Source of the DNA: an uncultured Candidatus Saccharibacteria bacterium
GTDB lineage: Bacteria > Patescibacteriota > Minisyncoccia > Phycocordibacterales > SBAW01
Length of the DNA stretch: 64,000 nt
NCBI GenBank assembly: GCA_964650645.1
Contig: CAZYUH010000001.1
Coordinates: 639,202 to 703,201 of the forward strand
Direction of reading: 5' to 3'
Made by a program: the position numbers and the translations under genes. Below are positions 13,203 through 46,023 of the stretch, piece after piece. The notes beneath the pieces were generated by a model, which did not search any database, was not told the origin of the DNA, and saw only the letters and a list, made by a program, of their open reading frames with translations. Positions within the stretch are counted from its first letter, which is position 1. Every line of letters begins with the position of its first letter.

Positions 13203-13215
13203 ATTCGCCCAACAG

Positions 13216-13245
13216 CAGCAATAAAGGCCCGCCGTACGGCGGGCC
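13216..13245. terminator. Bidirectional terminator between convergent genes
   Basis: AAAGGCCCGCC-GTAC-GGCGGGCCTTT perfect hairpin. Confidence 0.65.
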
Positions 13246-13251
13246 TTTGCA

Positions 13252-13749
13252 TTACCTCAGGGAATGGTGCGTCCAGAGCTCTCCGTGCGCGTCCCTCGCC
13301 TCCTCTAAAAGCGGCGGGTCCGAATCGGGGTGGAGCCTGAATATCCTGTCTCCCGACCTGAACGTGATGGCGTAATGCCACGGGGCTATCTCGGTAACGT
13401 ATTCGAGGCCCAGGTAGGCCTCGCAATCCTCTTTCTTGTCCTTGAACGGAATCGCTATACCGCGCGCGCCCGGGTCGAGCGCGAGCTTGAGCTTGGCCGC
13501 GATGTGCGCGAGGAGCGCAAGCCCCAGGTCGCGCTCCTGGGCGCTCTGCATCGCGCGTATGGTCGCCTGCATCCCCGCTATCGCCCGCGAGGGGTATTCG
13601 GGGAGCGGGCAGAACGGCGCCACCTCGTGCTCGTACTGCGGATGGATAATCTCATCCACCAGCCGGCACACGTGCGCCCCGCCGCTGTAGTACGCGCGGT
13701 TCGCGCACTCCCTGCATGAACGGGTCATCCCGGTAATCCTCTGAACCAT
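13252..13749 (-). CDS. Hypothetical protein with CxxC pair
   Basis: 165-aa ORF; N-terminal SCRECANRAY...CRLV, possible zinc ribbon; no family recognised. Confidence 0.4.
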   Translation of the reverse strand: MVQRITGMTRSCRECANRAYYSGGAHVCRLVDEIIHPQYEHEVAPFCPLPEYPSRAIAGMQATIRAMQSAQERDLGLALLAHIAAKLKLALDPGARGIAIPFKDKKEDCEAYLGLEYVTEIAPWHYAITFRSGDRIFRLHPDSDPPLLEEARDAHGELWTHHSLR

Positions 13750-13791
13750 CCCTGTCTCCTTGTCCGGTCTGGCAGGGACTATAGCACGGCG

Positions 13792-14778
13792 CTAGCCGTG
13801 GAGGAACTCTATCGTATCCCCCTCCTGCACCACGTATTCCTTCCCTTCGGTGCGTATCCAGCCCTTCTCGCGCGCGCCGGCGCGGCTGCCGGCCTCTATG
13901 AGCTTCTGCCAGTTGATGACCTCGGCGCGGATGAACTTGTCCCTGAAATCGCTGTGTATCGCGGCGCCCGCTTCAGGGGCCGTAGAGCCCCTTTTAACCG
14001 TCCAAGCGCGGCTCTCGGCCTCCCCGGTGGTAAAGAAGCTCATGAGCCCCAAAAGCTCGTAGCCCTTGCGTATGAGGTCGTTTATGCCGTCCTCGAACAC
14101 GCCGTACTCCTGGCGGAACGACTGCTTGTCCTCGCCATGCAGGTCCTTCAGCTCGTGTTCTACATTGGCGTCCACCACCACCCACGTCTTGTCGGCCAGG
14201 AACTCCATGAGCCGCTGCCAGCGCGGGTCGGCCTGCATCTCGTCCAGATTATGCCCGCCCGATTCCTTGTTAAGCACGTATAAGACGGGCTTCGCGCTAA
14301 GCAGGCCCGCAAGCGGCTCCTCGCTTGCCCCCTTGCCCTTCTTGGCCTGGCGCTTCTCCTCGCGCTCCTGGTCGGCAAGCGCGAGCTCGGTGTGTATGAG
14401 CTCTATGTCGGCCAGGGGGTCGATACCTTCCTGCGTGTTGGTGATATTGGGGTTCTCGAATATGCGCACCACGTGGGCTATGGCGTCCACCTCGCGGATA
14501 TGCTGCAAAAACTGGTTGCCAAGGCCCTCGCCCTCGCTGGCGCCCTTCACCAGGCCCGCGATGTCCACGAACTCGACCGCCGCAGGCACCTTGCTCTTCG
14601 ATTTGGAGAATTCGGCGAGCCTGTCGAGCCGCTCGTCGGGCACGGCCACCACGCCTACCGACGGGTCTATGGTGGCAAACGGGTAATTTGCGATGAGCAC
14701 GCTCTTTTTCGTGAGTGCATTAAAGAGCGTGGACTTCCCCACGTTGGGCAGGCCGACTATGCCGATACTGAGCGCCAT
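13792..14778 (-). CDS. ychF: Ribosome-binding ATPase YchF (Obg-like ATPase)
   Basis: G1 motif GIVGLPNVGKSTLFNAL, TGS-like C-terminus (YVVQEGDTIEF). Confidence 0.9.
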   Translation of the reverse strand: MALSIGIVGLPNVGKSTLFNALTKKSVLIANYPFATIDPSVGVVAVPDERLDRLAEFSKSKSKVPAAVEFVDIAGLVKGASEGEGLGNQFLQHIREVDAIAHVVRIFENPNITNTQEGIDPLADIELIHTELALADQEREEKRQAKKGKGASEEPLAGLLSAKPVLYVLNKESGGHNLDEMQADPRWQRLMEFLADKTWVVVDANVEHELKDLHGEDKQSFRQEYGVFEDGINDLIRKGYELLGLMSFFTTGEAESRAWTVKRGSTAPEAGAAIHSDFRDKFIRAEVINWQKLIEAGSRAGAREKGWIRTEGKEYVVQEGDTIEFLHG

Positions 14779-14835
14779 TTAGTGGTATGTATACCTCATT
14801 TTGCGGGTTTTGTCCTCTTTATCGCGCGGGCGCGC

Positions 14836-14866
14836 CTCCACGCAAAAAGGCCGAGAAGCGCTCGGC
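14836..14866 (-). terminator. Rho-independent terminator for the small secreted peptide gene
   Basis: Minus strand AAGGCCGAGCGCTTCTCGGCCTTTTTGCG. Confidence 0.6.
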
Positions 14867-14881
14867 CTTGCGTGCGGGGCC

Positions 14882-15127
14882 CTAGAAGCTGAACGGGAAT
14901 CCGTTCGGGAACGACGGGAAATTGATGGTCGGAATGCGGATGTCCGGGATGCGGATAGGCGGGAACTTTATTTCCGGGAAGCGTATCACCGGGAAATGTA
15001 TGGGCGGGATGTTCGGGAACCCGCCGCCTCCGCCGTAGCCGAAGTCGGCGGACGCCGCTGACGGCGCGAGCAGCACGACGGCGAATGCAGCCGAGGCCGC
15101 GTACGTCGCAAGTTTTCTAGTGGTCAT
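14882..15127 (-). CDS. Small secreted peptide with tandem Phe/Pro/Ile repeats (FPxIRxP x7)
   Basis: Signal peptide ...LLAPSAASA then GYGGGGGFP NIPPIHFP VIRFP EIKFP PIRIP DIRIP TINFP SFPNGFPFSF; DNA has ~15-bp cgggaa-containing tandem repeats. Confidence 0.5.
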   Translation of the reverse strand: MTTRKLATYAASAAFAVVLLAPSAASADFGYGGGGGFPNIPPIHFPVIRFPEIKFPPIRIPDIRIPTINFPSFPNGFPFSF

Positions 15128-15203
15128 AATGAAGAAGGTCAGATATCTGATAGTTAAGGCCAGCTCAAATGCCGCAGGTTTCCCGTCCTGCCTTATTTCC
15201 AGG

Positions 15204-16919
15204 CTAATCCGCTACGCGATACAAGTCAACACTGGGGGTGCTGATAACTTTCTCAAGCGCCGCAGAGCCCAAAAAGGGATACGAATAGGGGTCGTCATGG
15301 GCCTCGTCGGGGGTGTATATCACGTACCTGATCCCGAGGCCCGCTAATAATCTCAGTGTTTCGTCCGGATCGGCGTCATTGTCGGTAATGGCCGCCGAAA
15401 GGCGCGCGTACCCGGGGAGGCGCGACTGCTGTCCGCCGTCGCCTACTTCCCCTATTTCGGCACTCGCACCCTGATAAATGGTACAGTCGAAATATGAAGA
15501 TGAGGTGTTGGCCGTTAATAGACGGTTGTTGAAAACCGGCGTGTAGTACAGGTGCCAAGGGAGAAATACCGCCGCACAAGCATCATCCCGCTTCAATGTA
15601 TCGTTCACCGTTGCCCACCCGTCCGGGTACCACACGGGCCGTAATTGGCCCGCCAGGCCGAAGAGCGTGGTGGGCGTATACAAGAGCGGGATGCAGCACA
15701 GCGCGGCCATAGCCAAGCGCGGGCGCTTGAAGCGGCTGGCAATGTAACCTGCGCCCAATCCTCCTACAAGCGCGTACGCGAGCACCAACACGGCGCTCCA
15801 CTTCTGCGTATCCCTGAAGCCGCTCCAGAACGGCACATGATTGAACATCCATGCGTTGGCGTTTTGGAATATGCCCGGCCCGATGCCGGAGGAGAACACG
15901 AGCGCCAGCGCGCCTGCGCCGCACAGCCACAGCACGATAAAGCGGTTGCCCCGCCTGCGCAGGCCCGCGACAACTCCCGCGCACACAACGCCCGCAAGGG
16001 CGATGCCTGACAGCGCCCAGAGCAGGCCGCTCTCTTTAGGCCAGGCAAAGTACGTGATCCAGCGCTCGTGCTCGCCCCAAAAGCCGTACAGCGCCGCTAC
16101 GTTCCCTGCCGTGCCCAGTACCGGGTCGCTGGCGGTATAAAAGGCCCGCACGTCGCCCGCGCCGAAGTCGCTCAGCGCCGTTGCGGGCGCCGCAAAGGCC
16201 GGCACGAGCCAGTACAGGCTCGCAAGCGCAAATAGCAGACCGCAGGCGCATAAGCGGCCCAGGAGCGCCCGCGCCATGCGGTACTCCCCCGCGCACAGCA
16301 TGCGCGTTACGGAGGCCAGCGCGAATACGGCAAGCAGGACGCATCCCATGACCATAATGTGGAGCGAGAACATGCCCATGCATAGGAGCCACGCGCAGGC
16401 GTGCAGGGCGTGCCGCCACGCAAGGGTCCTGTACAGGCGCGTCAGCGAGCACGCGAGGGGGAACAGGAAGGCGTACGCCATGAGCACGCCCCACTGCCCC
16501 GCCAACATCCGCTCGTATACGAACGGGTTAACGGCGAACAGCGCCGATGCGAAATAGCGCCCAGCCCGATGGTCCTCGAACGGATAGAAGCGCAGAGGCA
16601 GGTAAAAAAGCAAATAGAACAGCCCGAACAGGATGCCCTTCTGGATGACCCAGACGGGCATCCAAAAATGCAGGAGGTATATAAGGTACCTGTACGGAAA
16701 CGCCGCCGCCGAAAGCCCCTCGTATGAAGGGAACGCCGCGTGTGGCCCGAAGACCATGTCGAGCGTGAGCACATAGCCCGGTAACAGCATCTGCCAGAGC
16801 ACTACCACGGCGCCCAGCGCCGCGATAAGCGCATGCTTGTAGTACAGCGCCGCAGCGCCTGCGCACGCCTTTAATGCCAGCGCCTTTGCCGCCCACGCGT
16901 TTGCCAATAGCCTTTTCAT
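15204..16919 (-). CDS. Polytopic membrane protein, putative GT-C-fold glycosyltransferase
   Basis: ~12 TM helices followed by ~130-aa C-terminal soluble domain; start taken at MKRLLANAW (ATG 16919-16917), directly abutting a palindromic operator. Confidence 0.45.
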   Translation of the reverse strand: MKRLLANAWAAKALALKACAGAAALYYKHALIAALGAVVVLWQMLLPGYVLTLDMVFGPHAAFPSYEGLSAAAFPYRYLIYLLHFWMPVWVIQKGILFGLFYLLFYLPLRFYPFEDHRAGRYFASALFAVNPFVYERMLAGQWGVLMAYAFLFPLACSLTRLYRTLAWRHALHACAWLLCMGMFSLHIMVMGCVLLAVFALASVTRMLCAGEYRMARALLGRLCACGLLFALASLYWLVPAFAAPATALSDFGAGDVRAFYTASDPVLGTAGNVAALYGFWGEHERWITYFAWPKESGLLWALSGIALAGVVCAGVVAGLRRRGNRFIVLWLCGAGALALVFSSGIGPGIFQNANAWMFNHVPFWSGFRDTQKWSAVLVLAYALVGGLGAGYIASRFKRPRLAMAALCCIPLLYTPTTLFGLAGQLRPVWYPDGWATVNDTLKRDDACAAVFLPWHLYYTPVFNNRLLTANTSSSYFDCTIYQGASAEIGEVGDGGQQSRLPGYARLSAAITDNDADPDETLRLLAGLGIRYVIYTPDEAHDDPYSYPFLGSAALEKVISTPSVDLYRVAD

Positions 16920-17236
16920 TCTAGTTTTTTGCAAAAAGCTAGAATGGCGTGGGCGCGTGGTGTCAGCTTATGGCGCACGTTCACGCTGTCGCTGCGCTTG
17001 GCCACAAGGCCCGCCATGGCCATCTTACGCAGGTGGTCGGACGCGTTCATGTACCCTATCGAGAGCCTCTGGGAGATTTCGTCGATAGACAGCTCGGGCT
17101 CGCGCTTAAGCAGGTCCAGTATGTGCAGCCGGCGGTGGTTCGCAAAGCCCTTTACCACGCGCTCAAGCCTCCGGTACTGCGCCCCTCCCTTTTGCCCCGC
17201 TTTTCCCTCTGTTTTGCGGCCCCTCGTTTGCATCAT
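16916..17236 (-). CDS. ArsR/SmtB-family HTH transcriptional regulator
   Basis: HRRLHILDLLKREPELSIDEISQRLSIGYMNASDHLRKMAMAGLV is a typical ArsR wHTH; 106 aa. Confidence 0.7.
   Translation of the reverse strand: MMQTRGRKTEGKAGQKGGAQYRRLERVVKGFANHRRLHILDLLKREPELSIDEISQRLSIGYMNASDHLRKMAMAGLVAKRSDSVNVRHKLTPRAHAILAFCKKLE
16922..16945. promoter_or_regulatory. Palindromic operator copy 1 (TAGTTTTTTGCAAAAAGCTAGAAT), overlaps arsR 3' end and the start of the downstream membrane-protein gene
   Basis: 24-bp exact repeat of the element at 17258-17281; core TTTTTGCAAAAA is a perfect palindrome flanked by CTAG..CTAG. Confidence 0.55.
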
Positions 17237-17257
17237 GCGGATATACTATACAGTTTT

Positions 17258-17281
17258 TAGTTTTTTGCAAAAAGCTAGAAT
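17258..17281. promoter_or_regulatory. Palindromic operator copy 2, overlapping the -35 region of the arsR promoter
   Basis: Identical 24-mer; on the minus strand it is followed by TATAGT 8 nt before the arsR ATG. Confidence 0.55.
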
Positions 17282-17379
17282 AAACCGGGAGGATGGAATG
17301 GATTGGGAGGGTGGTCGGGAAGGCTGGGCGCGCCAGGACATGCCAGTGCGCGCGTACTTGGGCGCCCTTGTTACCCTGC

Positions 17380-17748
17380 TCAGTCGCCGGCTTCGGTTCC
17401 CTTTTCGCGCCAGAGCTCTATGAGCTGGAGGGCCACCGTCATGCACAGGAAGAAGAACGCGAACACGGCCATGTACTCGGCAAACGCGTCCTGGTTAAGC
17501 GCGAGCAGGATTGGGCATGTTACCAGGCACAAAATGGCCAGTACGCCCACGATGCGGTTGTCCAGCCGGTACAGCGCGAACGAGAAGAACATGGCCCACA
17601 GCAAGCTCGAAATGACATCGGTCGCGTAGCCAATACCAATGAACGCGGCCACGATGAACGCCGCCTTCCATTTGCGCGCGGTTATATCGCTCCAGGCTTC
17701 CTTCAGCTCCTTTGTAAACTGCCTCCATACGATGCGTAGCGTGTGCAT
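17380..17748 (-). CDS. Small membrane protein, hypothetical
   Basis: 122 aa, 3 predicted TM helices. Confidence 0.4.
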   Translation of the reverse strand: MHTLRIVWRQFTKELKEAWSDITARKWKAAFIVAAFIGIGYATDVISSLLWAMFFSFALYRLDNRIVGVLAILCLVTCPILLALNQDAFAEYMAVFAFFFLCMTVALQLIELWREKGTEAGD

Positions 17749-17751
17749 ATA

Positions 17752-20595
17752 TTAGTGTGCGCGTGAGCGATACTTGCGGCGGACATGCCCTACCCCGGCG
17801 TAGCCCAGGTAGCCCAGACACCCGGCCAGCGTCAGCCCCGATACAATGAGCCCGAGGTAAAACCAGCGCTGGGGCCAGAATTCTATCACCATTTCAATGT
17901 CATAGCTCCCGCCGGGGTTTTGGGTACAGCCCGCCAGTTTTTGGACTTCGCACAGCTCTGTCGTGTCTACGTACCACCCGTTTAGGAAGCCATTGAGCTT
18001 GTAATGGTACTCGTCTCCTACCCTGTCGGGCTTGGCAAACGGCCACCAGCTATCCAATCGCCCTTGCACTTTGGCATTGTTGAGCTCTAAGTACCACTTG
18101 TCGTGATAACTCTCGCTCATGCCCAGGAAGAACGGCGTTGTTGCACCCCTTATGTACACCAGCTTCTTGGTCGGGCTTATAAGATCAAAGGTGGTGGATG
18201 CGGGTTGCACAAGCTGAGCATCCGGCTCGCTTACTAGATAATAAGAGCTGGATATATCCGGAATCTCGACAAGTTTGAAATTATCGTAACGGTTGATATT
18301 ATTAGTTTTTACGTCCGTCTCTTTTGCATATACATACAAACTGAGAGTTGTAGCCCCTGCAGGGACTTTTATGGTACGGGTTAAAGTATGCCAGGCAGTA
18401 TCGGTTAGCGGCAGATTCTCACTATCAGATGTCTTAACTGGGTCGTTAAAGCCAATGTAATAGGAAGCGGATTTTGCATTAGAACTTTGATAGTCGAAGC
18501 TCAATAAATATGTGCTAGTTGCATTAATAGGGAGTTCTATAGAGATGCAAGCAGTATGTCGAGTTGCCTCAAGTTGTAGAGATTGAACGCCGTCTGTCTT
18601 GTTATGGGCATCCAATTTCATTCCTAAAATAGGCTTTTGGTCATAATTATGACAATCCCCAACTGCTTGCTGCCAAAAACCTCTCTCAAAAGACCCATTG
18701 GTAATTAAATTTTTAAATGTGTAATTTTTATTTGTATAAGTAAATTGGTTATCGATACCATTTAATAAAGTAGTGCTCGAATATATGGGTTCATTATCAA
18801 TAGATAGTTTGTCGAAATTATTTAATGCGTAAAGTATATTTTTATTGGCAGAGTATATGGTTGTAGTAGCAGTAATACTCGAACTTGCGGTTGATATATT
18901 TTGAAAATTGACATTCTCAAATAACTGGTCAACATATGTTGCTGAAGAGGTGGCATTAGCTTTATTGAATAAGTAGAAATAAAAACCATTATGCAGTTGA
19001 TTGTTAACAAAATTATACTTTTCATCTAGATTATTTTTAGATTCAAAAGAATACAAATAATCAAATGTAAATATATTTCGTATCGATCTTATGTTTTTAA
19101 AAATAAACAAATTTGGATCTAGATACATATTGTTGACACGTGTCCAGTTACTATCTTTTGTGAGAGCGTTTATCTGATTCTCTGATACAGGAGTTGATAT
19201 ACAGGTTATTACGTAACCGGCACTATTTAGCAACGATAACGCATCTTGAATATTATCTTCTGATATATGTTTAACTTCTATATCTTTTGAAAGAAAATGC
19301 TGATTTAAAGTAAAAAATTTTATTTGATCAAGTTCATTACATATGCCGCCATCAACCCAAATAACCATGCTGTGGTTAGGTATATTGTTTAGTGATTGAA
19401 CTAGATCAGTATCAGGTAATTTGGGTATAAGTAATTTATTATAAATTTCAGTAAGCATGAATCCACACCAACCAAAAATTATTATAGTAAGAAAAGATAA
19501 TGATATAAATTTCAACGTTCTTGACATTCTCGAAATTCCCAAACCTAGAATTATTACTGCAAGTATGGGGATATATAATTGCCACTTAAGAGGTGATCTA
19601 AAGGCCCATCCACCCGGAAGATTATTTAGAATTGATAATATTATGTTTGAACCAAAGTTATTTAATGCCAACCAATATAAAAGTAGTAATATTCCTAGAA
19701 ATAATCTTGAAAAGAAACCTTCTATATTTTTATTATTAGAGTAAAAAAATGCAATTATAAGTAAAATCTGAAAAGAAAAACCAAAAATAACAAAAATAAT
19801 CTTATACCCTGAATTATAGTAATCATAATCAGTGAGAACATCTCTAGACCAAGTAAATGTATTAACCAAACTACCCGAGTTTGCAAACCCAATAAATGAA
19901 TCAGTATTTGAAGAGTTTGCATTTATCGTAGATACTATGGAAGCTTTATTTAAAGCTTGTGTTGAATAAATGCTCAATATAAGAAAGGCACTCAACATTC
20001 CACAAATTACTAATGCTTTTATGGCACTTATTATTAGTTCTTTTCTAAAAGGATTGCTGTAGAGCCGTGTTACAAAGAAAATTGTCGCTATAAAAGTATT
20101 TACGATGAAAGTAAACGGATGAATTAATGAAACGATTAATCCAAAATAAGCTAAAATAAAGTAACGAGGGCTTTTTGTCTGAATATATTTTTTTAAAAGT
20201 ATTATTACAAAAGGCAACATTGAGGCGCCTAAAATTAATCCTATTTTCGAAATATTTGCTAGAAATATCGGGTTAATAACATAAAATAAACTCAACAAAA
20301 AACGTGTATGAATATCTATTTTTTTAAAAAAAGATAATGCAAAATATGCAGAACATGCCGCAATCACAAGCGCTAGAAATAAGTATAAATAAGATACACC
20401 AAGGTTTCCAAGAATTGGATAAAATATAAGCAAAAAAAGCCTTATTGGTAGTCGAAAAACGCCATCCAAATTAATAGCTCCATTTTGGGAAGACCAAAGA
20501 TAGAATGTTTTTAGAAAATATATCCATGCTTCAAATGGAAACCCAAAATCACCGTTAGCTAGAAATCCTAAATTAAATATATTACCGAAGTACAT
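17752..20595 (-). CDS. Large polytopic membrane protein (YfhO/GT-C-like N-terminal 13 TM region + ~450-aa extracytoplasmic domain + C-terminal TM anchor), mosaic composition
   Basis: 947 aa; N-terminal 2/3 encoded by AT-rich DNA, C-terminal third by GC-rich DNA; C-terminal domain looks like a carbohydrate-binding/jelly-roll domain. Confidence 0.5.
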   Translation of the reverse strand: MYFGNIFNLGFLANGDFGFPFEAWIYFLKTFYLWSSQNGAINLDGVFRLPIRLFLLIFYPILGNLGVSYLYLFLALVIAACSAYFALSFFKKIDIHTRFLLSLFYVINPIFLANISKIGLILGASMLPFVIILLKKYIQTKSPRYFILAYFGLIVSLIHPFTFIVNTFIATIFFVTRLYSNPFRKELIISAIKALVICGMLSAFLILSIYSTQALNKASIVSTINANSSNTDSFIGFANSGSLVNTFTWSRDVLTDYDYYNSGYKIIFVIFGFSFQILLIIAFFYSNNKNIEGFFSRLFLGILLLLYWLALNNFGSNIILSILNNLPGGWAFRSPLKWQLYIPILAVIILGLGISRMSRTLKFISLSFLTIIIFGWCGFMLTEIYNKLLIPKLPDTDLVQSLNNIPNHSMVIWVDGGICNELDQIKFFTLNQHFLSKDIEVKHISEDNIQDALSLLNSAGYVITCISTPVSENQINALTKDSNWTRVNNMYLDPNLFIFKNIRSIRNIFTFDYLYSFESKNNLDEKYNFVNNQLHNGFYFYLFNKANATSSATYVDQLFENVNFQNISTASSSITATTTIYSANKNILYALNNFDKLSIDNEPIYSSTTLLNGIDNQFTYTNKNYTFKNLITNGSFERGFWQQAVGDCHNYDQKPILGMKLDAHNKTDGVQSLQLEATRHTACISIELPINATSTYLLSFDYQSSNAKSASYYIGFNDPVKTSDSENLPLTDTAWHTLTRTIKVPAGATTLSLYVYAKETDVKTNNINRYDNFKLVEIPDISSSYYLVSEPDAQLVQPASTTFDLISPTKKLVYIRGATTPFFLGMSESYHDKWYLELNNAKVQGRLDSWWPFAKPDRVGDEYHYKLNGFLNGWYVDTTELCEVQKLAGCTQNPGGSYDIEMVIEFWPQRWFYLGLIVSGLTLAGCLGYLGYAGVGHVRRKYRSRAH

Positions 20596-20597
20596 AC

Positions 20598-21665
20598 CTA
20601 TTTATTGTTAAAAGATATGAGGTTCTGAATATAAATTTTAGATATATCTAGGATCGCCTCATCCTTTTGACCCAGAGATTTCAAAAGCTGTGTACATTTA
20701 TTATCATAAGAAATAGGGATATATTTGACACCACTTAAGGCAGCTAGGAGCATCCCATGATACTGAGGCAAGATACAAACAAGACTTTCCTTATTGTTTC
20801 GTAAAAATAAATAAAAACTAATTGGATTGCCGCTAAAATTTTTTATTATAATTCGATCAGTATTTAATAAGTTTGCGTGTAATTTTTGGAACTCAAGCAC
20901 ATCTGAATACATACTATTTTTAAAACTTGGATGCAGAGCTAGAAGTAAAAAATTATCAGTGCTTTTATATTGAATAAACTTTTCAATTACTGCAACGTAA
21001 TTAGAAATTTCAGTTGTACTATTACCTCGATAACTAACAATATAATTAATTTGTTTAGGATCTATTGGAAACAGTGATTTAGCCTCGACCTTATAAGCTT
21101 CGAGGTTCAAATTATTTAACAAAAAGGCAATATCTTGAGTTAGAACAACTTTCCGTTTAAAACCTAAACCAGAAAATGAATAGTATGTTTCTTCATCTCT
21201 TGCATAAATTTTATTTGACGCAAGTCCAGAAATAAATGCACCGAAGTGGCCAATCATTCCTGTCGACTTATAATATCCAACGCCAATAAGATACACTTCT
21301 TTTCTAAGCACGAATCGCGCTGCAAGTAATAAAAAGGAAAGTATTAAAACTTTTAAATTGAAATCCAGCCCCCAGAGTCCACCTCCTCCGATTATAGTTC
21401 TTTTGCTTACAAATAAAGCCTTTAGGACTCCCATTATCGAAGGCTTAATCAAACGAGCTTCTTCAAACGAATGGTGAGAATCGGAATAAATTTCACTATT
21501 TAAATAAATAAATTGTGTATTTTTTATATTTCTTGATTTGAAATAATTTAGCAAAACTTCTAGAATTAGCTCATCTCCCATATTTCCACCACCATAAAAA
21601 CCAAACAAAAAAGAATTGGAAAAATCAAGCTTATCTAATTCTAATTTTAATTTTCTTGTTTCCAT
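20598..21665 (-). CDS. Polysaccharide pyruvyl transferase family protein
   Basis: FYGGGNMGDELILEVLL ... IIGGGGLW motifs typical of PF04230 (CsaB/WcaK-like). Confidence 0.7.
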   Translation of the reverse strand: METRKLKLELDKLDFSNSFLFGFYGGGNMGDELILEVLLNYFKSRNIKNTQFIYLNSEIYSDSHHSFEEARLIKPSIMGVLKALFVSKRTIIGGGGLWGLDFNLKVLILSFLLLAARFVLRKEVYLIGVGYYKSTGMIGHFGAFISGLASNKIYARDEETYYSFSGLGFKRKVVLTQDIAFLLNNLNLEAYKVEAKSLFPIDPKQINYIVSYRGNSTTEISNYVAVIEKFIQYKSTDNFLLLALHPSFKNSMYSDVLEFQKLHANLLNTDRIIIKNFSGNPISFYLFLRNNKESLVCILPQYHGMLLAALSGVKYIPISYDNKCTQLLKSLGQKDEAILDISKIYIQNLISFNNK

Positions 21666-21666
21666 A

Positions 21667-22518
21667 TTAACAACTTACTCTTGCCCACAGTTTCGTTTTT
21701 TTTATAAAATTAAAAAAATAATTTTTTTGTTCCGCATTAATAAAACTGTCTAGTAAAAAAGAAAGCAAAGTATATGCATACATTCCAATCTTGTTGGGCG
21801 GCGAGTATTTTCTTAAATACTCCATCCGTGACTGAAACATTAATTTTGTTTTGATTTTAAAATACTGATCCGTACTATTTTTATGTTTTCTGTATTTATA
21901 TAAATATTCAGGCAAATTGGCTCCTTGTTTACCAGCCATTATAAATCTTAAAAACATATCTACATCTTCAATGTAATCTTTGTCATCACGATACGCTCCG
22001 ATTTCAAGAACATCACTTTTTCTAAACATTATTGTTGGATGAAGAAAAGGGTAATGAAAAAAATATAACTTAGATATAACATGTGGTTCAATTGGAAACT
22101 CAATGGAAGCAAGCTCTATATTGCTTTCATTAATAATAATCGCAAAAGTGCCAACAAGGGATAAGGCAGGATTCTTGGATAAATATAGATATTGTTTTTC
22201 GAGTCTGTCAGGTGTCGAGATATCGTCCCCATCCATACGCGCAATTATTTCACCCCTAGCTATACTTAGCCCTTTATTTAAATTTTTTGCGATTCCTATA
22301 CGTTCAGTATTTTTTATATATATAATTCGCGGGTCAAATAAATAACGTTTTATAATTTTTTCAGACTCATCAGTGGATGCATCATCAATAATAATGAATT
22401 CAAAATCAGAGTACGATTGATTCAAAATACTTTCAATTGATTCACGTAAAAAAGCCTCGGCATTTCTAAAAGGCATTACTACAGATATTTTAGGTTGTTT
22501 AGTCATATGATTTTGCAA
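21667..22518 (-). CDS. Glycosyltransferase family 2
   Basis: ISVVMPFRN...IIIDDASTDES...MDGDDIS (DxD) GT-A signature; true start may be the Met at 22506. Confidence 0.75.
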   Translation of the reverse strand: MQNHMTKQPKISVVMPFRNAEAFLRESIESILNQSYSDFEFIIIDDASTDESEKIIKRYLFDPRIIYIKNTERIGIAKNLNKGLSIARGEIIARMDGDDISTPDRLEKQYLYLSKNPALSLVGTFAIIINESNIELASIEFPIEPHVISKLYFFHYPFLHPTIMFRKSDVLEIGAYRDDKDYIEDVDMFLRFIMAGKQGANLPEYLYKYRKHKNSTDQYFKIKTKLMFQSRMEYLRKYSPPNKIGMYAYTLLSFLLDSFINAEQKNYFFNFIKKTKLWARVSC

Positions 22519-23326
22519 CTAGTATACCTATTCCACCAACTCCAAACTCACAAGTTTTCATAAAAAGCATGCCGACTCCAATGAAAAGATTTTTAAAAAG
22601 TTTAATCGGGCGCGAGAAGAAAAGGATGTAACGGTTAAAAATCCCCGCCGTTCTCTTGCTGGAATTGATAGCACCTTTGGAGTGGCAGAGATACGCCTTT
22701 GCCTGCTTGGCGTAATAATACTTTTTCTTAAGGGTTTTGCCGAGACTTATCTTCCCTTCGTTGTGATAAATTGCGTCGCTGATTCGCGCGATCTTCCCTA
22801 GCGCCTCTGCCCTGTCAGACAAGTCCCAGTCTTCGCCGGAAATCAGGGCTTCGTTATATCCCCCGACCTTATCAAAAGTTGCCTTGCTAAAGAATCGAGC
22901 GGCTTCAATGGCGTCTACCCCGACATAAAAGCTCCGCTCAAGCTTTTTGCACTGCGCCCAGAACCCCTCGCCAAACGACTCTTCGGGGATGATAATACCC
23001 GCCGCGTCCGCGCTTGAGGCCATTACCCGCACGCAGCTTCCGATAACGCTCTTGGAAACCACCATGTCGCTGTCAATAAACACGACATGCTCCCCTGACG
23101 CCTGCGCCGCGCCAAAATTGCGCTGTGCGCTGCGCTCTGGGCCTTTGGTGAATACCTTGTCCGTAAAGCGCCGCGCGATTGCCTGGGTGTCGTCGGCACT
23201 GCTGTTGTCTACCACGATTAGCTCGATGTTCTTGTATGACTGCTCCTTAATCGAGCGCAAGCACGCCTCTAAAAACTCCGCAGAGTTCTTTGTGGGCACG
23301 ATGACTGATACGAGCGGGTTAGGCAT
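22499..23326 (-). CDS. Glycosyltransferase family 2
   Basis: VSVIVPTKNSAEFL...LIVVDNSSADDT...IDSDM; start at MPNPLVSV (internal Met of ORF 22499..23398); overlaps downstream GT2 by 20 nt. Confidence 0.75.
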   Translation of the reverse strand: MPNPLVSVIVPTKNSAEFLEACLRSIKEQSYKNIELIVVDNSSADDTQAIARRFTDKVFTKGPERSAQRNFGAAQASGEHVVFIDSDMVVSKSVIGSCVRVMASSADAAGIIIPEESFGEGFWAQCKKLERSFYVGVDAIEAARFFSKATFDKVGGYNEALISGEDWDLSDRAEALGKIARISDAIYHNEGKISLGKTLKKKYYYAKQAKAYLCHSKGAINSSKRTAGIFNRYILFFSRPIKLFKNLFIGVGMLFMKTCEFGVGGIGILVAKSYD

Positions 23327-24425
23327 GGGCAAGAATGTCTTTGAACTGCGCGTAGCTTTTCTCGAAAGTAATGCCCTTGCTCCACTCCCAGGCGGCATGG
23401 CGCATGTGCTCGTAGCGCGGCTGGTCTTGTAGGAGCGCGGCCATGGACTCTGCCAGCGCCTCGGGGGTGTTTTTGGCGGTTACAAGCCCCGTGACGCCGT
23501 TTTGCACGCTGTCGCGCAGGCCGTCGCAATTATACACAACCGCCGGGGTGCCCTGGCTGTTTGCTTCGGTCACGACAAGCCCCCACCCTTCCTTGACTGA
23601 CGCGACCGGCAAGATATGCGACTTTTGGAGCAATTCTACTTTTTTATCTCCGCTTACCTTCCCCAGGCACTCGATGCTGTCTTTGTAGGGCGATTGCTGT
23701 ATGTGCCGGGCGACGCGCGCGGCGTATGCGCCGTCGCCTGCGCCCGCGATAATGAGCCTTGCAGTAGGCACCGAGCGCTTGAGCATCTCGAAGGCCCGCA
23801 CGATATGCGCGGTGCGCTTCATGGGCCGTATCGCGCCCAGCGCGAGGATGGTCGGGTGGGGATACTTTTGTATGCTAAGGCTTGCGACCGGCGTGAGCTC
23901 TATCCCTTCGCTTATGATGCTGATGTGCTCGGGCTTAAAGCCGTGGCGCATGAGGTCTTTTTTGGTGCTTTCTGATACGGTAACGACTTCCTGCCCGCCG
24001 AGCGCCAGCACGCGCAGGTAGAGGGGCTCCAGCAGGTAGCCAACAAGCGACGCCGGAGCCCATAGCTGATAGAACCATATTTCCCTGCATAATTGATGAA
24101 CGAACAGAATAACCCTTTGTTTTGCGTATAGTTTGGCGAAAAACGGGATGGTGTTTACCTCGTCTATGACGACATCGGGCCAGCCCTGCAGGTGCTTTTT
24201 GTAGTAGCGGTACGCCCGCCAGTACACGCTGTAGCGCCCGCCGAGCCTGATTATAGTGAAGCCGTTGCGCTCTTCCCTTTCAGCGCTGCCCTCGAATCCG
24301 CCCACTATGAAGCGCACCTCGTGGCTGTCTTTGGCAAGGCGCTTTGCCAGCTCCTCGTTGACCACCTCGGCGCCGCCCGCCAGTGGATGGCGCATGTCTT
24401 TCCATGTCAGCCAGAGTATCTTCAT
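23319..24425 (-). CDS. Glycosyltransferase family 4 (GT-B)
   Basis: MKILWLTW...GGAEV N-terminus and C-terminal EGWGLVVTEANSQGTPAVV motif; ATGA overlap with upstream gene at 24422-24425. Confidence 0.75.
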   Translation of the reverse strand: MKILWLTWKDMRHPLAGGAEVVNEELAKRLAKDSHEVRFIVGGFEGSAEREERNGFTIIRLGGRYSVYWRAYRYYKKHLQGWPDVVIDEVNTIPFFAKLYAKQRVILFVHQLCREIWFYQLWAPASLVGYLLEPLYLRVLALGGQEVVTVSESTKKDLMRHGFKPEHISIISEGIELTPVASLSIQKYPHPTILALGAIRPMKRTAHIVRAFEMLKRSVPTARLIIAGAGDGAYAARVARHIQQSPYKDSIECLGKVSGDKKVELLQKSHILPVASVKEGWGLVVTEANSQGTPAVVYNCDGLRDSVQNGVTGLVTAKNTPEALAESMAALLQDQPRYEHMRHAAWEWSKGITFEKSYAQFKDILAHA

Positions 24426-25372
24426 GAGTCGCGCTTGATGGTGCGGCGCACGATGTAGAGCGGCCGGGCGGCCACCTCGGTGCGTATAGAGCCCACGTAG
24501 AGGCCTATGATGCCCTGCGCGGCGAGCACGATGCCCACCAAGAATACGATGAGCACCGCGAGCTGGGCCGAGCCCGAAACGTGCCAATTGAGCGCGTCGT
24601 TGAGCATGTACCGCTCGACCAGTATGACCGCCCCAAGGACGCCGCTGAGCGCGCTTATGGTAACGCCCAGGTACCCGGCAAGCCTAAGCGGCAGGAGCGT
24701 GTGCGACAGCAGGGAGCTTATGGCGAGGCGCACCAGCTTTATGGCGGAGTACTGCGCCTGGCCGCGCGCGCGGGCGGGCGCCACGAACGGCACCGACGCG
24801 CGTCGGAAGCCCAGCCAGTTGATGAGCGAGCGCGTCATGCGCTCGCGCTCGTGGAAGGCGCAGTAGGCCCGCACCACCGCGCGGTCGAGCAGGCGGAAAT
24901 CGGTGTCGCCGTGGCTGAAGTCGGTGTCCGATATGCGCGCCATAAGGCGGTAAAACAGCAAGGAGCCCCACTTCTTTATGAAGCCCTCGCCCGTGTTGCC
25001 CGTGCGGGTGCCCACGACGACCTCGGCGCCCTTTTCCCACTCGCGCACCATGCCCGGGATGAGCTGCGGCGGATGCTGGAGGTCGGCGTCCATGAGGATG
25101 ACCGCGTCGCCTTTTGCGGCGCACAGCCCGGCGGTGGTGGCCATTTCCTTGCCGAAGTTGCGGCTGAACTCGATGCAGGACACCGCGGGGTCGCTCTGCA
25201 CGAGGCGCTCTATGGCGGCCACCGTGGCATCGGTACTGCCGTCGTCTATAAAGATGACGGAGCGGGCGTAGCCCGCGAGCTCTTTCTCCCACACGGCGCA
25301 CAGCGCGGCGTGCACCAGCGGGACGTTCTCTTCTTCGTTATGGACGGGTATTAGTACGGTGAGTGCCTTCAT
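24422..25372 (-). CDS. Polyprenol-phosphate glycosyltransferase (GT2, GtrB/ArnC/DPM1-like) with two C-terminal TM helices
   Basis: LTVLIPVHNEEENV...FIDDGSTDAT...MDADLQHPP; C-terminal hydrophobic pair. Confidence 0.75.
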   Translation of the reverse strand: MKALTVLIPVHNEEENVPLVHAALCAVWEKELAGYARSVIFIDDGSTDATVAAIERLVQSDPAVSCIEFSRNFGKEMATTAGLCAAKGDAVILMDADLQHPPQLIPGMVREWEKGAEVVVGTRTGNTGEGFIKKWGSLLFYRLMARISDTDFSHGDTDFRLLDRAVVRAYCAFHERERMTRSLINWLGFRRASVPFVAPARARGQAQYSAIKLVRLAISSLLSHTLLPLRLAGYLGVTISALSGVLGAVILVERYMLNDALNWHVSGSAQLAVLIVFLVGIVLAAQGIIGLYVGSIRTEVAARPLYIVRRTIKRDS

Positions 25373-26682
25373 GTCAGTGCGGCGGGCGCTGGAGCGGGAG
25401 CCGTGCGGCAAAACAGCAGGTAATTGAGCGCCATGAGCGCCAGGAGCAGCGCCGAGGACGCCGCGAGCATGCCCGTGACGGCCCCGAGCGTCGCGTGATT
25501 GAGCGCGATGAGCCCGACTTCCGCGGCGATGCCCGCCGCGAGGAAGTACAGGAAGGAAGTATTGCGCGCCGCAACGAAATAATTGATGAAGGCGGTCGAG
25601 AGCGCTATGCAGCCCATGGCAATCCCGAACAGTCCCAGGTGCGGGGCCACCCCCAGGTAGCGCGCCCCGAAGAGCGCCGAGAGCACGAGCCCGGGTACCA
25701 GCGAGAACAGCCCGACTGCGGCGGCAGAGGCGGCAAGGATAGCCGCGAGCGAGAGGCCCAAAATGCGCCGCCCGCCGCCCTTTGCGCCCGCCTCGGCGGC
25801 CGACGCCAGCGGGAGCAGGACGGTGATGAACGCGCCCACGCCGTAGACGAGGATCTTGCCGATGGTCGAGAGCGCGCCGTACTCGCCAGCCGCCTCGGCA
25901 GAGAGGTAGTGCTTGGCCAGCAGTACGTCAATGTTGGAAAGGAGCGCCATGAGGAGCGTGGTGGCGAGAATGGTCATGAACAGGGCCTTAAGCGGGCCGA
26001 GCGCGAAGGGCTCCGCCTGCGGCGCGGCGTGCCTTTTGAATATCTTGCGCGTCGCCAGGTAGCCGTAGCCCCACGAGGCAAGCGAGGCCGCCACCAGCCC
26101 CAGCATGACGCCCGCAACCGAGAACCCGGCGTACACGAGCGCCACCGAGAGCGCGAGCTTTAATACGGCGCTGAGCGCGTTCTGCTTGGCGAGCAGGAAG
26201 AACTCCTGCAGCCCCTGCAGGGTGCCCGACTGGAGCGAGCTTGCGAGCGCGACCGGGATGAGCAGGCTGAATATGATGAGCGGGACGACTTCGAGCCGCA
26301 GGAAGCCCGCGAGCGCGGGCACGAGGCACACGAACGCCGCCCACAGCGCGAGCGAGGCGGCAAGCGCGTTCTTCCTTAGGTGCACGAACAGCGCGCGCAC
26401 CGCGCCCGGGCCTTCCGCCCCGCGAAAGGCGGCCTCGCGGGTCATGAGCATGGTAAGCGCCGTTGCCGGCACCGAAACAATAAGCATGAGGCTGAAGAGC
26501 GCGGTCACCTCGCCGAACTCTGCCACGCCCAGCATGCGGCTTATGACGATGGTGAAGACGTAGTTGAGCGCGTTAACCACGAACGAGCCCGCGAAGATTA
26601 CCGAGCTTGAGAAGAAGAACCCGGTATCGGCATAGTGCCGCGCAAGCGCAAGGAGCCTCGCCTTTGAAGGGTTCGCGCCCAT
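25369..26682 (-). CDS. Polysaccharide flippase (Wzx / MOP superfamily)
   Basis: 437 aa, ~12-14 TM helices, position at head of glycosyltransferase cluster. Confidence 0.65.
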   Translation of the reverse strand: MGANPSKARLLALARHYADTGFFFSSSVIFAGSFVVNALNYVFTIVISRMLGVAEFGEVTALFSLMLIVSVPATALTMLMTREAAFRGAEGPGAVRALFVHLRKNALAASLALWAAFVCLVPALAGFLRLEVVPLIIFSLLIPVALASSLQSGTLQGLQEFFLLAKQNALSAVLKLALSVALVYAGFSVAGVMLGLVAASLASWGYGYLATRKIFKRHAAPQAEPFALGPLKALFMTILATTLLMALLSNIDVLLAKHYLSAEAAGEYGALSTIGKILVYGVGAFITVLLPLASAAEAGAKGGGRRILGLSLAAILAASAAAVGLFSLVPGLVLSALFGARYLGVAPHLGLFGIAMGCIALSTAFINYFVAARNTSFLYFLAAGIAAEVGLIALNHATLGAVTGMLAASSALLLALMALNYLLFCRTAPAPAPAALT

Positions 26683-26812
26683 GTGGGGCTAATTTTCGCA
26701 CAGGTTGGCCTGTTGTGCCATGCCCCGCCCGGGCGGCAGATACGGGCCCTTCCGTGCGAAAGGGCCCGCGCAAGATGCGCGCCGAGGCGTCAGGAAACGG
26801 CCTGAAATAAGG

Positions 26813-27427
26813 CTATTCCCCGAGCTTGCCGAGCCAAGCGGCCTTGCGGCGCCACTCGTTCTTCTTCCATTCGGGGGCCTGGTCGGTGGGGCCCATGTGC
26901 GAGAGGCGCACCTTGAACCCCGCAAACCAGAGGATGGCGCGCTTTATCTCGTTGGTGTAGTCGCCGAACGCGAGCCTGACGAGGTACGGATGCGTGCCCG
27001 ACACGACGATGACGCGGGCGGTCTTGCCCTTGAGCCGCTTGTACCAGCCCGTGGCGGGCGTCCCCTGCGCGGTCTTCCTCATGTTGAATGCGAAGCCCGG
27101 CAGCCACACGCGGTCGAAGAGCCCCTTGAGGAGCGCGGGCATGGAGGACCACCACAGCGGGTACACGATGAGGAAATGGTCGCACCAGCGGACGTTCTCC
27201 TGGAACTTCAAGAGGTCGGGCTCGAGCGCCTGTATTTCCTTGTAGCCCTTGTGGAGGATGGGGTCGAACCTCACCTCGCCGAGGTTCATGCGGCGCACCT
27301 CGTGGCCGGCTTCCTTGGCAGCCGTCTCGTACAGGAGTGCGAGCTCGCCCGAGAGCGTGTGCGACGTGTCGGGGTGGCCCAGAAGTATGAATATCTTCTT
27401 GTGCGGATGGTCTGAAAAGAATCCCAT
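26813..27427 (-). CDS. NAD(P)H-dependent quinone oxidoreductase (flavodoxin-like fold, NQO1/MdaB-type)
   Basis: KIFILLGHPDTSHTLSGELALLYE...LIVYPLWWSSMPALLKGLFDRV matches Flavodoxin_2 family. Confidence 0.7.
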   Translation of the reverse strand: MGFFSDHPHKKIFILLGHPDTSHTLSGELALLYETAAKEAGHEVRRMNLGEVRFDPILHKGYKEIQALEPDLLKFQENVRWCDHFLIVYPLWWSSMPALLKGLFDRVWLPGFAFNMRKTAQGTPATGWYKRLKGKTARVIVVSGTHPYLVRLAFGDYTNEIKRAILWFAGFKVRLSHMGPTDQAPEWKKNEWRRKAAWLGKLGE

Positions 27428-27452
27428 GTCTCTTTATTATCAGTATATACCG

Positions 27453-28478
27453 TTATTCCTCGCCCATCTTCACGACCGGCCCGCGCCTGGACGACTGAAT
27501 GTCCTCGGGACGCTTGGGCATGACATGCAGGGCCGGCAGATCGGCCGCGTCGAGGTTCGGCATGGGCACGGACGATTTTTCCGGGGATTCGGGCACCAGC
27601 TCGACTGGCGCGGCGGGCTTTTGCGGTTGCGCCGGGGGCGGCGTTGCGGGAGCCGGCGCAGGGTGCGGCTTCGGGGGCTGGGGTGCGGATTCGGGTGCAG
27701 GCAGATTCAGCTCGGCTACCATAGGCAAAAGGCTGTGGTTGGGGTGGATGTCTACCCTTGATAGGGGTACAGGCATTTTTTGCGAGGGTACAGGTACCCC
27801 CGGAAGGGGCACAGGCGTATTTTTCTGCGCCGCAGGAGCCGGCGGCACTGCGGGCGCGGGCGTTGGCGCCGCGGGAGGAAAGGGGTTCGGCGACAGGTGC
27901 GCCGGCACGGGCCTGAGGCCCGCAAGCGCAGGAACCGACGCGGGCCAGGCGGCCGCCTTCCCTGCGGGCGCGTCGTGGCGGCGCATTATCCACACGAACG
28001 CGGCCCACACGGCCCCGAAGGCGGCCAGCCACCCGGAATAGATCCCGAACAGGAGCCCCCACCCCACGGCGGGCGCCATGGCGTGGACTATGAAGAGCGC
28101 GTACCAGTTGGCGCCCTCGAAGCCTTCGACCGCGTCGCGCTTTATGCCGGTAACGTCAAGCTCGACGAAATGGAAGGCCGCGAGGAGCGCGATGAGCAGC
28201 CACTTGAAGAGGAACGCGGGCGCCGCGAGCACTCCCGGCGTCCCGCTCTGGAAGTGCACGAGTATGGCCGCGCCGCCCGAGACGATGATGGCCGCAAGCG
28301 CGACGGCCCGTATGGAGCGCGCGGCGCGCACGAAGCCGAATACCGTCTCGCTCTTGTGCGCGTGCAGGGAAAGCAGGTGGCCGACCAGCGTGACGGTAAG
28401 CGCCCCTACCCCCGCGATAATGCCCCACTCTTGCGTTAAAGACGCCAAAAGCGATAGGAGTTCCCCCGCCAATACCAT
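27453..28478 (-). CDS. Membrane protein with Pro/Ala-rich C-terminal tail, hypothetical
   Basis: N-terminal 6 TM helices then PAPAVPPAPAAQ...PPKPHPAPAPATPPPAQPQKP. Confidence 0.4.
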   Translation of the reverse strand: MVLAGELLSLLASLTQEWGIIAGVGALTVTLVGHLLSLHAHKSETVFGFVRAARSIRAVALAAIIVSGGAAILVHFQSGTPGVLAAPAFLFKWLLIALLAAFHFVELDVTGIKRDAVEGFEGANWYALFIVHAMAPAVGWGLLFGIYSGWLAAFGAVWAAFVWIMRRHDAPAGKAAAWPASVPALAGLRPVPAHLSPNPFPPAAPTPAPAVPPAPAAQKNTPVPLPGVPVPSQKMPVPLSRVDIHPNHSLLPMVAELNLPAPESAPQPPKPHPAPAPATPPPAQPQKPAAPVELVPESPEKSSVPMPNLDAADLPALHVMPKRPEDIQSSRRGPVVKMGEE

Positions 28479-28479
28479 G

Positions 28480-28721: not shown

Positions 28722-28723
28722 TG

Positions 28724-43548: not shown

Positions 43549-43627
43549 GGGTACATAATACCCTTGAATTTGAGCATTTCCCGGGGCTATTTATCAGACC
43601 ACAAATGTTTTATTAAGGAATTACTTT

Positions 43628-45969: not shown

Positions 45970-46023
45970 TGATTCGCCCTCTACTGAAGAGGGGCGCATT
46001 TTAACTTATTTTTATAAATTGTC

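Follow-up and report, generated by a model that had tools for sequence, protein, structure and literature searches.

The window analyzed here is a 64,000-nt stretch of contig CAZYUH010000001.1 (GenBank assembly GCA_964650645.1) from an uncultured Candidatus Saccharibacteria bacterium. It contains a gene cluster that probably directs the synthesis of a cell-surface glycopolymer, in which all genes are on the minus strand and form one tight operon. Within this operon lies an AT-rich island of three and a half packed operon genes, whose two limits are both located inside genes. One limit is in the gene for a 947-amino acid (aa) membrane protein, referred to as Big947, and the other is in the gene for a family 2 glycosyltransferase (GT2) of 275 aa, referred to as GT2_275. 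The genes were assigned with Pfam and NCBIfam, and all NCBIfam matches in the operon scored under the curated cut-offs. From upstream to downstream, the operon contains the following genes, for which GC3 is the G + C content at third codon positions.

25369-26682, minus strand: Wzx-type flippase (Pfam Polysacc_synt), GC3 0.86.
24422-25372, minus strand: PgfS/ArnC-like polyprenyl-phosphate GT2 (GT2_316), similar over its full length to these proteins with scores below curated cut-offs, GC3 0.88.
23319-24425, minus strand: family 4 glycosyltransferase (GT4), the last gene of the conserved upstream flank (23319-26682), GC3 0.70.
22499-23326, minus strand: GT2_275, the conserved GT2 of the locus, 275 aa as called in an open reading frame (ORF) of 299 aa, residues 242-275 in the island.
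21667-22476, minus strand: EpsE-like GT2 (GT2_269), 269 aa with an ORF extending to 22518, wholly in the island, NCBIfam EpsE match below cut-off.
20598-21665, minus strand: polysaccharide pyruvyl transferase (PyrT), 355 aa, wholly in the island, PF04230.
17752-20595, minus strand: Big947, putative AftD-like GT-C glycosyltransferase of 947 aa, assigned by fold match.
17380-17748, minus strand: sm122, a small protein of 122 aa, the first gene of the conserved downstream flank (15204-17748).
16916-17236, minus strand: MarR-like gene of the downstream region, not present at this position in relatives.
15204-16919, minus strand: p571, an MmpA-like protein of 571 aa, conserved downstream of the big gene.

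The island (18232-22604, minus strand) was 4,373 nt long, with a GC content of 30.6% and a GC3 of 0.24. The GC content of the remainder of the window was 62.4%. In 1-kb steps, GC was 0.28-0.31 across 19-22 kb and 0.39 at both edges, and it was mostly 0.55-0.68 beyond the island, with a minimum of 0.49 at 44-45 kb. In 200-nt steps, GC at the left edge was 0.54 at 17.9 kb and had dropped to 0.31 by 18.6 kb, and at the right edge it was still 0.32 at 22.4 kb and had recovered to 0.57 by 22.9 kb. The 500-nt steps of the island core were 7.4 standard deviations (SD) under the mean of the 114 steps outside (mean 0.627, SD 0.045, z = -7.4).

The limits of the island were defined by maximum-likelihood segmentation of third-codon-position bases along the minus-strand operon. 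The identified segments were 15204-18229 with a GC3 of 0.76, 18232-22604 with 0.24, 22607-24425 with 0.71 and 24428-26680 with 0.87. Both island change points (18229/18232 and 22604/22607) were unmoved when the segmentation penalty was varied, and the boundaries were sharp to approximately 30 nt. The genes flanking the island had GC3 values of 0.71-0.76, and the island core had a uniform GC3 of approximately 0.22 over 3.9 kb. Moreover, the fraction of FYMINK residues (F, Y, M, I, N, and K) was 0.39-0.44 in the island-encoded parts vs. 0.20-0.31 in the flanking parts, which indicates a long residence of the island in an AT-rich genome.

In addition to these two change points, finer steps were also found. 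An intermediate sub-segment in the island (18232-18702, minus strand) had a GC3 of 0.35-0.37 and coincided with the carbohydrate-binding module (CBM) of Big947 (residues ~630-789). The difference between a GC3 of 0.35 in this sub-segment and 0.22 in the island core was significant (Fisher p = 0.001), although the step emerged only at the lowest segmentation penalty. Raised GC3 over the CBM segment was not seen in the three low-GC relatives checked, which speaks against an intrinsic feature of the gene. The CBM sub-segment may mark a second event or a feature of the donor. Outside the island, the immediate flanks had GC3 values of 0.71-0.77, below the 0.8-0.9 typical of genes in the window. For instance, GC3 was 0.74-0.77 from the C-terminal part of Big947 through p571. 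A further step was found exactly at a gene boundary (24425/24428), where GC3 rose from 0.71 in GT4 and the head of GT2_275 to 0.87 in GT2_316 and the flippase. The graded GC3 of the flanks resembles that described for the Salmonella rml genes (PMC3715488), and by this analogy hints at nested events.

The codon listing and the third-position string placed the two junctions, and the parts of Big947 that they separate, as follows.

22580-22610, minus strand: right junction, at residue ~241/242 of GT2_275 (LFFSRP / IKLFKNLF).
18180-18235, minus strand: left junction, at residue ~789/790 of Big947 (YYLVS / EPDAQLVQPAS).
18229-20595, minus strand: donor-like codons 1-789 of Big947, GC3 approximately 0.2 in codons 1-630 and approximately 0.35 in codons 630-789, FYMINK fraction 0.40.
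17752-18228, minus strand: host-like codons 790-947 of Big947, GC3 approximately 0.7, FYMINK fraction 0.24, encoding the second beta-sandwich and the C-terminal membrane anchor.

The left junction is located directly after a conserved FYLVxxP block, in the linker between the strands at residues 785-789 and 800-807. According to the family consensus and the modelled secondary structure, this linker separates the CBM from the last beta-sandwich, so that codons 1-789 cover the GT-C catalytic domain, the alpha/beta domain and the CBM. On the other side, the AT-rich tail of GT2_275 retains the C-terminal motif of its family, P.KLF.NP..G.GMLFMKT.EF. At both junctions the reading frame is kept and the alignment with homologs stays in register, and the operon remains tightly packed through the island, with intergenic gaps of 1-3 nt and one of 22 nt. 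Joins in homologous register suggest that the segment was replaced by an allelic version of the same locus rather than inserted. No flanking repeats were found around the island, no tRNA gene was found within 6 kb (the nearest is at 28724-28796) and no integrase was found among the island ORFs, every one of which Pfam places in a gene family of the operon. An origin as a mobile element or classical genomic island was therefore rejected.

The sequence across both junctions was also recovered by another assembler. The exact 947-aa protein is recorded on two contigs, one of 754 kb at NCBI and one of 16.7 kb in Logan (SRR32005135), the latter of which is flagged in four samples. The Logan contig (L001, 16,723 nt) was 100% identical to positions 12032-28754 of the window and spans both junctions. 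Given this reproduced sequence and the in-frame, in-register joins, an assembly chimera is unlikely.

These results agree in most respects with an earlier note on this DNA, in which the region had been read by eye. The note placed an AT-rich island at 18240-22640, and the computed change points (18232 and 22604) differ from those limits by no more than approximately 40 nt. Its estimate of 30-35% GC for the island holds, and the background, put at approximately 65%, is closer to 62%. It had proposed sliding-window GC and GC3 plots, and these showed that GC is not uniform. That both composition boundaries fall inside genes was borne out, at residue ~789/790 of the 947-aa protein and approximately 35 codons before the GT2 stop, as were the listed gene content (the 947-aa membrane protein, a pyruvyl transferase, a GT2 and the end of the next GT2) and the GC-rich bulk of the flanking GT2 (residues 1-241, GC3 approximately 0.7). 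Two extents needed correction. The low-GC share of the 947-aa gene, given as two-thirds, is residues 1-789 (83%), with the very-low-GC core ending near residue 630, and the low-GC tail of the flanking GT2, given as approximately 45 codons, is approximately 35 codons.

Big947 was modelled with AlphaFold (AF2) on 41 family members. The model had a predicted local distance difference test (pLDDT) score of 85.9 and a predicted template modelling score (pTM) of 0.84, and pLDDT was 88-91 across the junction. The modelled protein contains a helical transmembrane (TM) GT-C domain (residues 1 to ~390), an alpha/beta domain (~395-620), a jelly roll (628 to ~790), a second beta-sandwich (800-906) and a single TM helix (908-946). 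The jelly roll matches Pfam CBM_4_9 with an E-value of 2.6e-5, just under the curated cut-off. The top PDB match found with Foldseek was the mycobacterial AftD (6w98_A, E 3e-11, TMq 0.46). Big947 itself had no Pfam GT-C match at E < 0.01 and no NCBIfam match, and nothing was found in a profile search of PDB sequences with it. A few family members gave weak Pfam matches to GT-C_AftD (PF11847), YfhO and PTPS_related. Big947 aligned over 99% of its length with a family of approximately 950-aa proteins, of which the named members are mostly from Saccharimonadales or Saccharibacteria, and D16 and D44 were nearly invariant in the family alignment. In its modelled structure, Big947 resembles a GT-C glycosyltransferase of the AftD type and includes a CBM. 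The label GT-C/YfhO-like that it had been given in the earlier note is valid at the level of the fold, with AftD as the closest structure.

The other proteins encoded in the island were assigned from their sequences. PyrT matched PF04230 over all of the profile (positions 1-280 of 280) with 61.1 bits against a cut-off of 25.3. It is only CsaB-like, as its score against the CsaB equivalog model was 75.5 and the cut-off is 213. The best homolog of PyrT was 42% identical, and an ortholog is found at the same position in nearly all related loci. The homologs of GT2_275 aligned over the full length and were 52-61% identical. No counterpart of GT2_269 was found at the same position in related loci, where only partial matches of 24-35% were detected. 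The best homologs of GT2_269 were at most 54% identical, and the few that carry names are mostly from other Patescibacteria. The top matches of GT2_275 were double-GT2 proteins of 575 aa, which give no information on the donor. P0139, the one that was inspected closely, is a tandem duplication of the GT2_275 type, and its interpretation as a fusion with GT2_269 was rejected.

The order of genes in the glycan operon is conserved over at least 35 Saccharibacteria loci. The conserved order is flippase, GT2_316, GT4, often a homolog of GT2_275, PyrT, Big and p571, and it recurs in L002, L004 and L006, the nearest relatives at the locus, as well as in most of the 36 loci from species representatives. 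Directly upstream of the big gene, a pyruvyl-transferase gene was found in 33 of the 36 other loci compared. This conserved order places the island at orthologous positions. The content of the slot between GT4 and PyrT varies by genome and can be a methyltransferase, a deacetylase, a GT2 or nothing. In two loci, an NTP-transferase gene precedes GT4. The identities between the proteins of the window and those of L002, L004 and L006 were as follows.

GT4: 60-64%.
Big residues 790-947: 63-66%.
Big residues 628-789: 59-66%.
Big residues 331-627: 30-32%.
Big residues 1-330: 32-38%.
Pyruvyl transferase: 32-41%.
p571: 34-42%.

These nearest relatives have compositionally homogeneous genomes with approximately 34% GC. 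Thus, suitable low-GC donors that carry the locus exist in the same broad clade.

A second low-GC island was found in the same slot of a distant locus, L043 (JGI Ga0265297_10000873), after GT4 and before a p571-like gene. It extends from ~8370 to ~16480 (approximately 8 kb) and has 23-34% GC between flanks of approximately 50% GC. The cassette of L043 encodes a GT2, a methyltransferase, a UDP-galactopyranose mutase, a methyltransferase-like protein, a GT4, a GT2 and a 648-aa protein without a Pfam match, a gene set wholly different from that of the island in the window. Its left edge lies inside GT4, approximately 58 codons before the stop, and the tail of this GT4 had no detectable homolog. 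L043 and the low-GC relative L004 share a source metagenome. The alternative cassettes for which the earlier note proposed a search are thus represented by L043, and only at long range: the collections searched held no close strain, their relatives being no closer than approximately 60-73% protein identity. Altogether, these loci are consistent with a cassette flanked by conserved arms, provided by GT4 or GT2_275 on one side and by p571 or the C-terminal part of Big on the other.

Milder GC dips of 8-13 points over the big gene were found in L024, L027, L034, L041 and L023. Two loci of GC-rich Saccharibacteria, L041 (CAZDGK010000006.1, 10001-12031) and L024 (8800-12800), show drops of 13-16 points across this gene. 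GC in L041 begins to drop near the start codon of the big gene, within which the contig ends. In L024, GC falls from approximately 1 kb upstream of the big gene and recovers just after its stop. Some of the GTDB records that carry the locus are titled Bacillota, Pristimantibacillus, Nevskiaceae, Acidoferrum, Uhrbacteria, Methylomirabilis and Limnocylindria (loci L007, L010, L015, L022, L023, L035 and L036), which suggests mis-binned contigs or mislabelled metagenome-assembled genomes.

The island is probably the core of this conserved glycopolymer operon, exchanged for the corresponding segment of an unsampled relative of much lower GC content that carries the same locus. This explanation is favored by the sharp GC3 steps, the shifted amino-acid usage, the in-register joins, the tight gene spacing, the conserved gene order, the low-GC relatives, the island of L043, the milder dips at the big gene in other loci, the decoupling of the N-terminal and C-terminal parts within the Big family, the position of the left junction in a confidently modelled linker and the reproduced sequence. 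Under this explanation, the replacement would have brought in the last ~35 codons of GT2_275, the extra EpsE-like GT2, a new pyruvyl transferase and the first 789 codons of Big947. The recipient would have kept the head of GT2_275 and, of the GT-C enzyme, the last beta-sandwich and the membrane anchor. Both enzymes would then be natural chimeras, and the GT-C enzyme would be joined at an inter-domain linker. The direction of the transfer (import) and the mechanism of recombination are inferred. Saccharibacteria are naturally competent and integrate DNA via homologous recombination (PMC10633639), so that a route of uptake is available, and the donor DNA may have been taken up by natural competence.

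The replaced segment would be the core of the operon that determines the specificity of the glycopolymer. The PgfS/ArnC-like GT2 is predicted to put a sugar on polyprenyl phosphate, and the cytoplasmic GT4, GT2s and pyruvyl transferase to assemble and decorate the repeat. The flippase would export the lipid-linked intermediates, and the GT-C enzyme would add sugar outside the membrane. A swap of the cassette would therefore be expected to alter the structure of the surface glycan.

Several results weigh against replacement by a foreign cassette. First, a search of 5.8 billion protein clusters detected neither a donor nor a near relative for any gene of the island. The highest identities were 40% for residues 1-330 of Big947, 42% for the pyruvyl transferase and 54% for GT2_269. 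The homolog searches by which the earlier note had hoped to identify a donor lineage thus gave none, with best protein identities of 40-54%. Moreover, the island DNA had no match among plasmids and phages, and the island proteins had no match among viral contigs. Second, the databases searched held no close relative of the host in which the state before the replacement could be seen. A scan of GTDB species representatives with the family alignment returned neither the host genome nor a near relative, and in JGI metagenomes the GT4 protein was matched at no more than 60%, in a scan that detected L043 and no close host relative. Third, PyrT and the N-terminal region of Big have lower GC than their flanks in 34 of 35 related loci (median -3 points). 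Random exchange does not predict such a one-sided deficit, for part of which the TM-rich amino-acid composition may account.

Fourth, the protein comparisons do not add independent proof that Big947 is a mosaic. The N-terminal two-thirds and the C-terminal third of the family are decoupled, which by itself speaks for replacement: P0003 and P0005 are 64% identical in the N-terminal segment N1 and 66% in the C-terminal part, and P0003 and P0007 are 40 and 67% identical, respectively. However, the identity profile of Big947 against its nearest relatives (approximately 35% in the N-terminal and 65% in the C-terminal part) was also found between two compositionally homogeneous genomes, so identity alone is no proof of chimerism. 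In bootstrapped neighbor-joining trees, the window protein was left unplaced with both halves of Big947. The segment-wise identity (approximately 35% in N and 60-73% in M/C) was therefore rejected as independent evidence. What identifies Big947 as chimeric is the break in its composition, and the mosaic protein proposed in the earlier note stands on that break, with neither the trees nor the identity profile adding to it.

Finally, DNAs with GC3 values of 0.22 and 0.75 lack the identity tracts for classical homologous recombination, which makes a single RecA-type step implausible. With almost no identity between the two DNAs, the joins probably came from microhomology or illegitimate joining or from a multi-step history, rather than from one RecA-type exchange. 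The joins could represent microhomology or illegitimate events filtered by selection for function. Alternatively, the history could have passed through intermediate genomes of closer composition. The earlier note had read the pattern as cassette replacement by homologous recombination in the flanking genes. The replacement in homologous register is supported by the in-frame joins and the retained family motif, and homologous recombination as its mechanism is an inference.

A nested history is unlikely as the specific course of events, and it is a variant of the replacement model. In such a history, the cassette would have entered a moderately GC-rich relative first, or would have been joined illegitimately, and homologous recombination in the outer GC-rich flanks would have followed. 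The intragenic composition junctions would then be older scars, and the CBM sub-segment would be the remnant of a separate event. The lower GC3 of the flanks (0.71 and 0.74-0.77), the extra change point at 24425/24428 and the distinct GC3 of the CBM sub-segment, which is unlike that of low-GC relatives, are consistent with this history, and the same gradient logic was described for the Salmonella rml genes (PMC3715488). However, the collections searched held no related genomes by which the events could be dated or ordered, the differences in flank GC3 could be gene-specific, and the CBM step depends on the lowest segmentation penalty.

Slightly less probable again is that the island is a resident, non-recombining and hypervariable core, without any recent import. 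The high GC content of the genome would then be maintained, or have been raised, by GC-biased gene conversion or by selection that acts via recombination with conspecifics, a strain-specific cassette without a homologous partner would stay at the AT-rich mutational equilibrium, and the boundaries would mark the end of inter-allele homology. Biased gene conversion has been hypothesized for bacteria (PMC4450053), and the unexplained low GC of wzx/wzy-type genes has been remarked on (PMC3715488). The GC deficit of the cassette in 34 of 35 related loci, in none of which its GC is clearly higher than that of the flanks, the stepped GC3 gradient (0.87, 0.71, 0.24 and 0.76) and the empty donor searches all favor a resident core, and the GC content of the nearest relatives at the locus makes a low-GC ancestor conceivable. 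However, most related loci show a deficit of just 1-5 points, for which the amino-acid composition of membrane proteins could account. In addition, the boundaries of the island are too sharp to sit easily with such a core, and its GC3 over 3.9 kb together with fully AT-shifted amino acids would need a very long and stable exclusion from recombination. Moreover, the lack of a GT2_269 counterpart in related loci and its named homologs, mostly in other Patescibacteria, point to the gain of a gene.

An assembly or binning chimera, in which two erroneous joins would have linked a high-GC contig with reads of a low-GC organism, is very improbable, since, although the sequence is a metagenome-type assembly and the Logan contig may stem from the same reads as the deposited genome, the contig of an independent assembler is identical across both junctions and is reported in four samples, the joins are in frame, in register and in genes at their expected operon positions, the 947-aa protein was modelled confidently across its junction, sequences with GC3 values of 0.22 and 0.75 would not be expected to share the k-mers for mis-joins in an assembly graph, and two in-frame, in-register mis-joins between such sequences are very unlikely. 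The assembly artefact that the earlier note wished to see excluded is thus very unlikely to be the source of the island.

Outside the island, p571 matched the NCBIfam model MmpA, a trehalose lipid delivery protein, over nearly its full length with 177.8 bits against a cut-off of 210, and it had no Pfam match. A palindrome of 27-30 nt (TTCTAGTTTTTTGCAAAAAGCTAGAAT) occurs twice, at 16915-16946 and 17255-17284, and brackets the MarR/ArsR-like gene at 16916-17236. The two copies probably serve as operator sites or delimit a small inserted module. A second ORF of 947 aa is located at 10359-13202 on the plus strand. It is secreted and rich in Thr/Pro linkers, contains a duplicated module of approximately 210 aa and FN3, DUF4082 and SH3_3 domains, and is probably a surface adhesin-like protein. 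The two 947-aa ORFs (10359-13202 and 17752-20595) have no common Pfam domain and very different sequences, so a kinship between them was rejected and their equal length is coincidental. A milder low-GC stretch (0.49-0.57) at 43600-47000 contains the genes for a DUF2335 membrane protein (43628-44068) and a 484-aa GT2 (44545-45999) as well as a tRNA gene (46893-46965), and it is possibly a further acquired or variable region.

As Saccharibacteria are attached to the bacteria that host them, their surface glycans are likely interfaces with hosts and phages. If the replacement model is correct, a conserved glycan operon of Saccharibacteria has a swappable core, and complete catalytic modules, among them the greater part of an AftD-like GT-C enzyme, could pass between lineages approximately 30 GC points apart with their reading frames intact. 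The two enzymes would be natural chimeras, with the join of the GT-C enzyme at a mapped domain boundary and that of the GT2 inside a conserved C-terminal motif. The island also sharpens a mechanistic question, namely how in-register joins are made without DNA homology, and as an extreme case it can serve to test why the variable genes of polysaccharide loci are AT-rich. If the core is instead resident, the GC3 of approximately 0.22 in the island would be the true mutational equilibrium of the lineage, and the 62% GC of the genome would be actively held up. The deficit in 34 of 35 loci would then be a family-wide trace of the same process, and the locus would be a natural experiment on the AT-rich polysaccharide regions found across bacteria.

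Similar to three-component extracytoplasmic glycosylation systems, which combine a GT2 of the GtrB/CsbB/PgfS/ArnC type, a flippase and a GT-C enzyme such as YfhO, GtrC or ArnT, the operon in the window appears to have all three components. Different from these systems, however, its flippase is of the Wzx/MOP type rather than the GtrA type. The operon also adds cytoplasmic glycosyltransferases and a pyruvyl transferase, and looks like a full polymer pathway. Within the operon, the predicted architecture of Big947 is similar to that of AftD, a GT-C arabinofuranosyltransferase of mycobacteria that carries periplasmic CBMs. Common to the two are a polytopic GT-C domain at the N-terminus, extracytoplasmic beta domains of the CBM type and a C-terminal TM segment. 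However, the two proteins are only approximately 10% identical, Big947 is approximately two-thirds the length of AftD and it has one C-terminal helix where AftD has several. The likeness is structural, and an arabinan substrate is not implied.

Mosaic alleles of pbp and penA arise by transformation and interspecies recombination in naturally competent bacteria, from donors that are approximately 75-95% identical in DNA. As in these alleles, a section of each chimeric gene of the window would have been exchanged, in frame and in register, for that of a diverged homolog, and the lineage is a competent one. Different from the pbp and penA alleles, the parts joined in the window differ by approximately 50 GC3 points, which makes a comparable DNA identity impossible.

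By analogy, the locus would be the Saccharibacteria counterpart of the known low-GC variable regions for O-antigen and capsule synthesis (PMC3715488; PMC7305143), rather than a new kind of system. In Salmonella, the O-antigen genes have 28-37% GC in a genome of 51-52% GC, and recombination junctions were found inside the rml genes (PMC3715488). Similar to these regions, the operon appears to have conserved genes on either side of a variable center made up of glycosyltransferase and processing genes, a GC content far under the genome average, composition steps and junctions inside shared genes, and different cassettes at one slot across lineages, as in L043 and the window. The differences are also clear. 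The host is of the Saccharibacteria type, a member of the candidate phyla radiation, and not a proteobacterium, and the switching in the window is deduced from a single genome and distant relatives. Moreover, the contrast in the window is larger than that in Salmonella, at 31% against 62% GC (approximately 32 points), and both of its junctions would make chimeric enzymes of the cluster itself.

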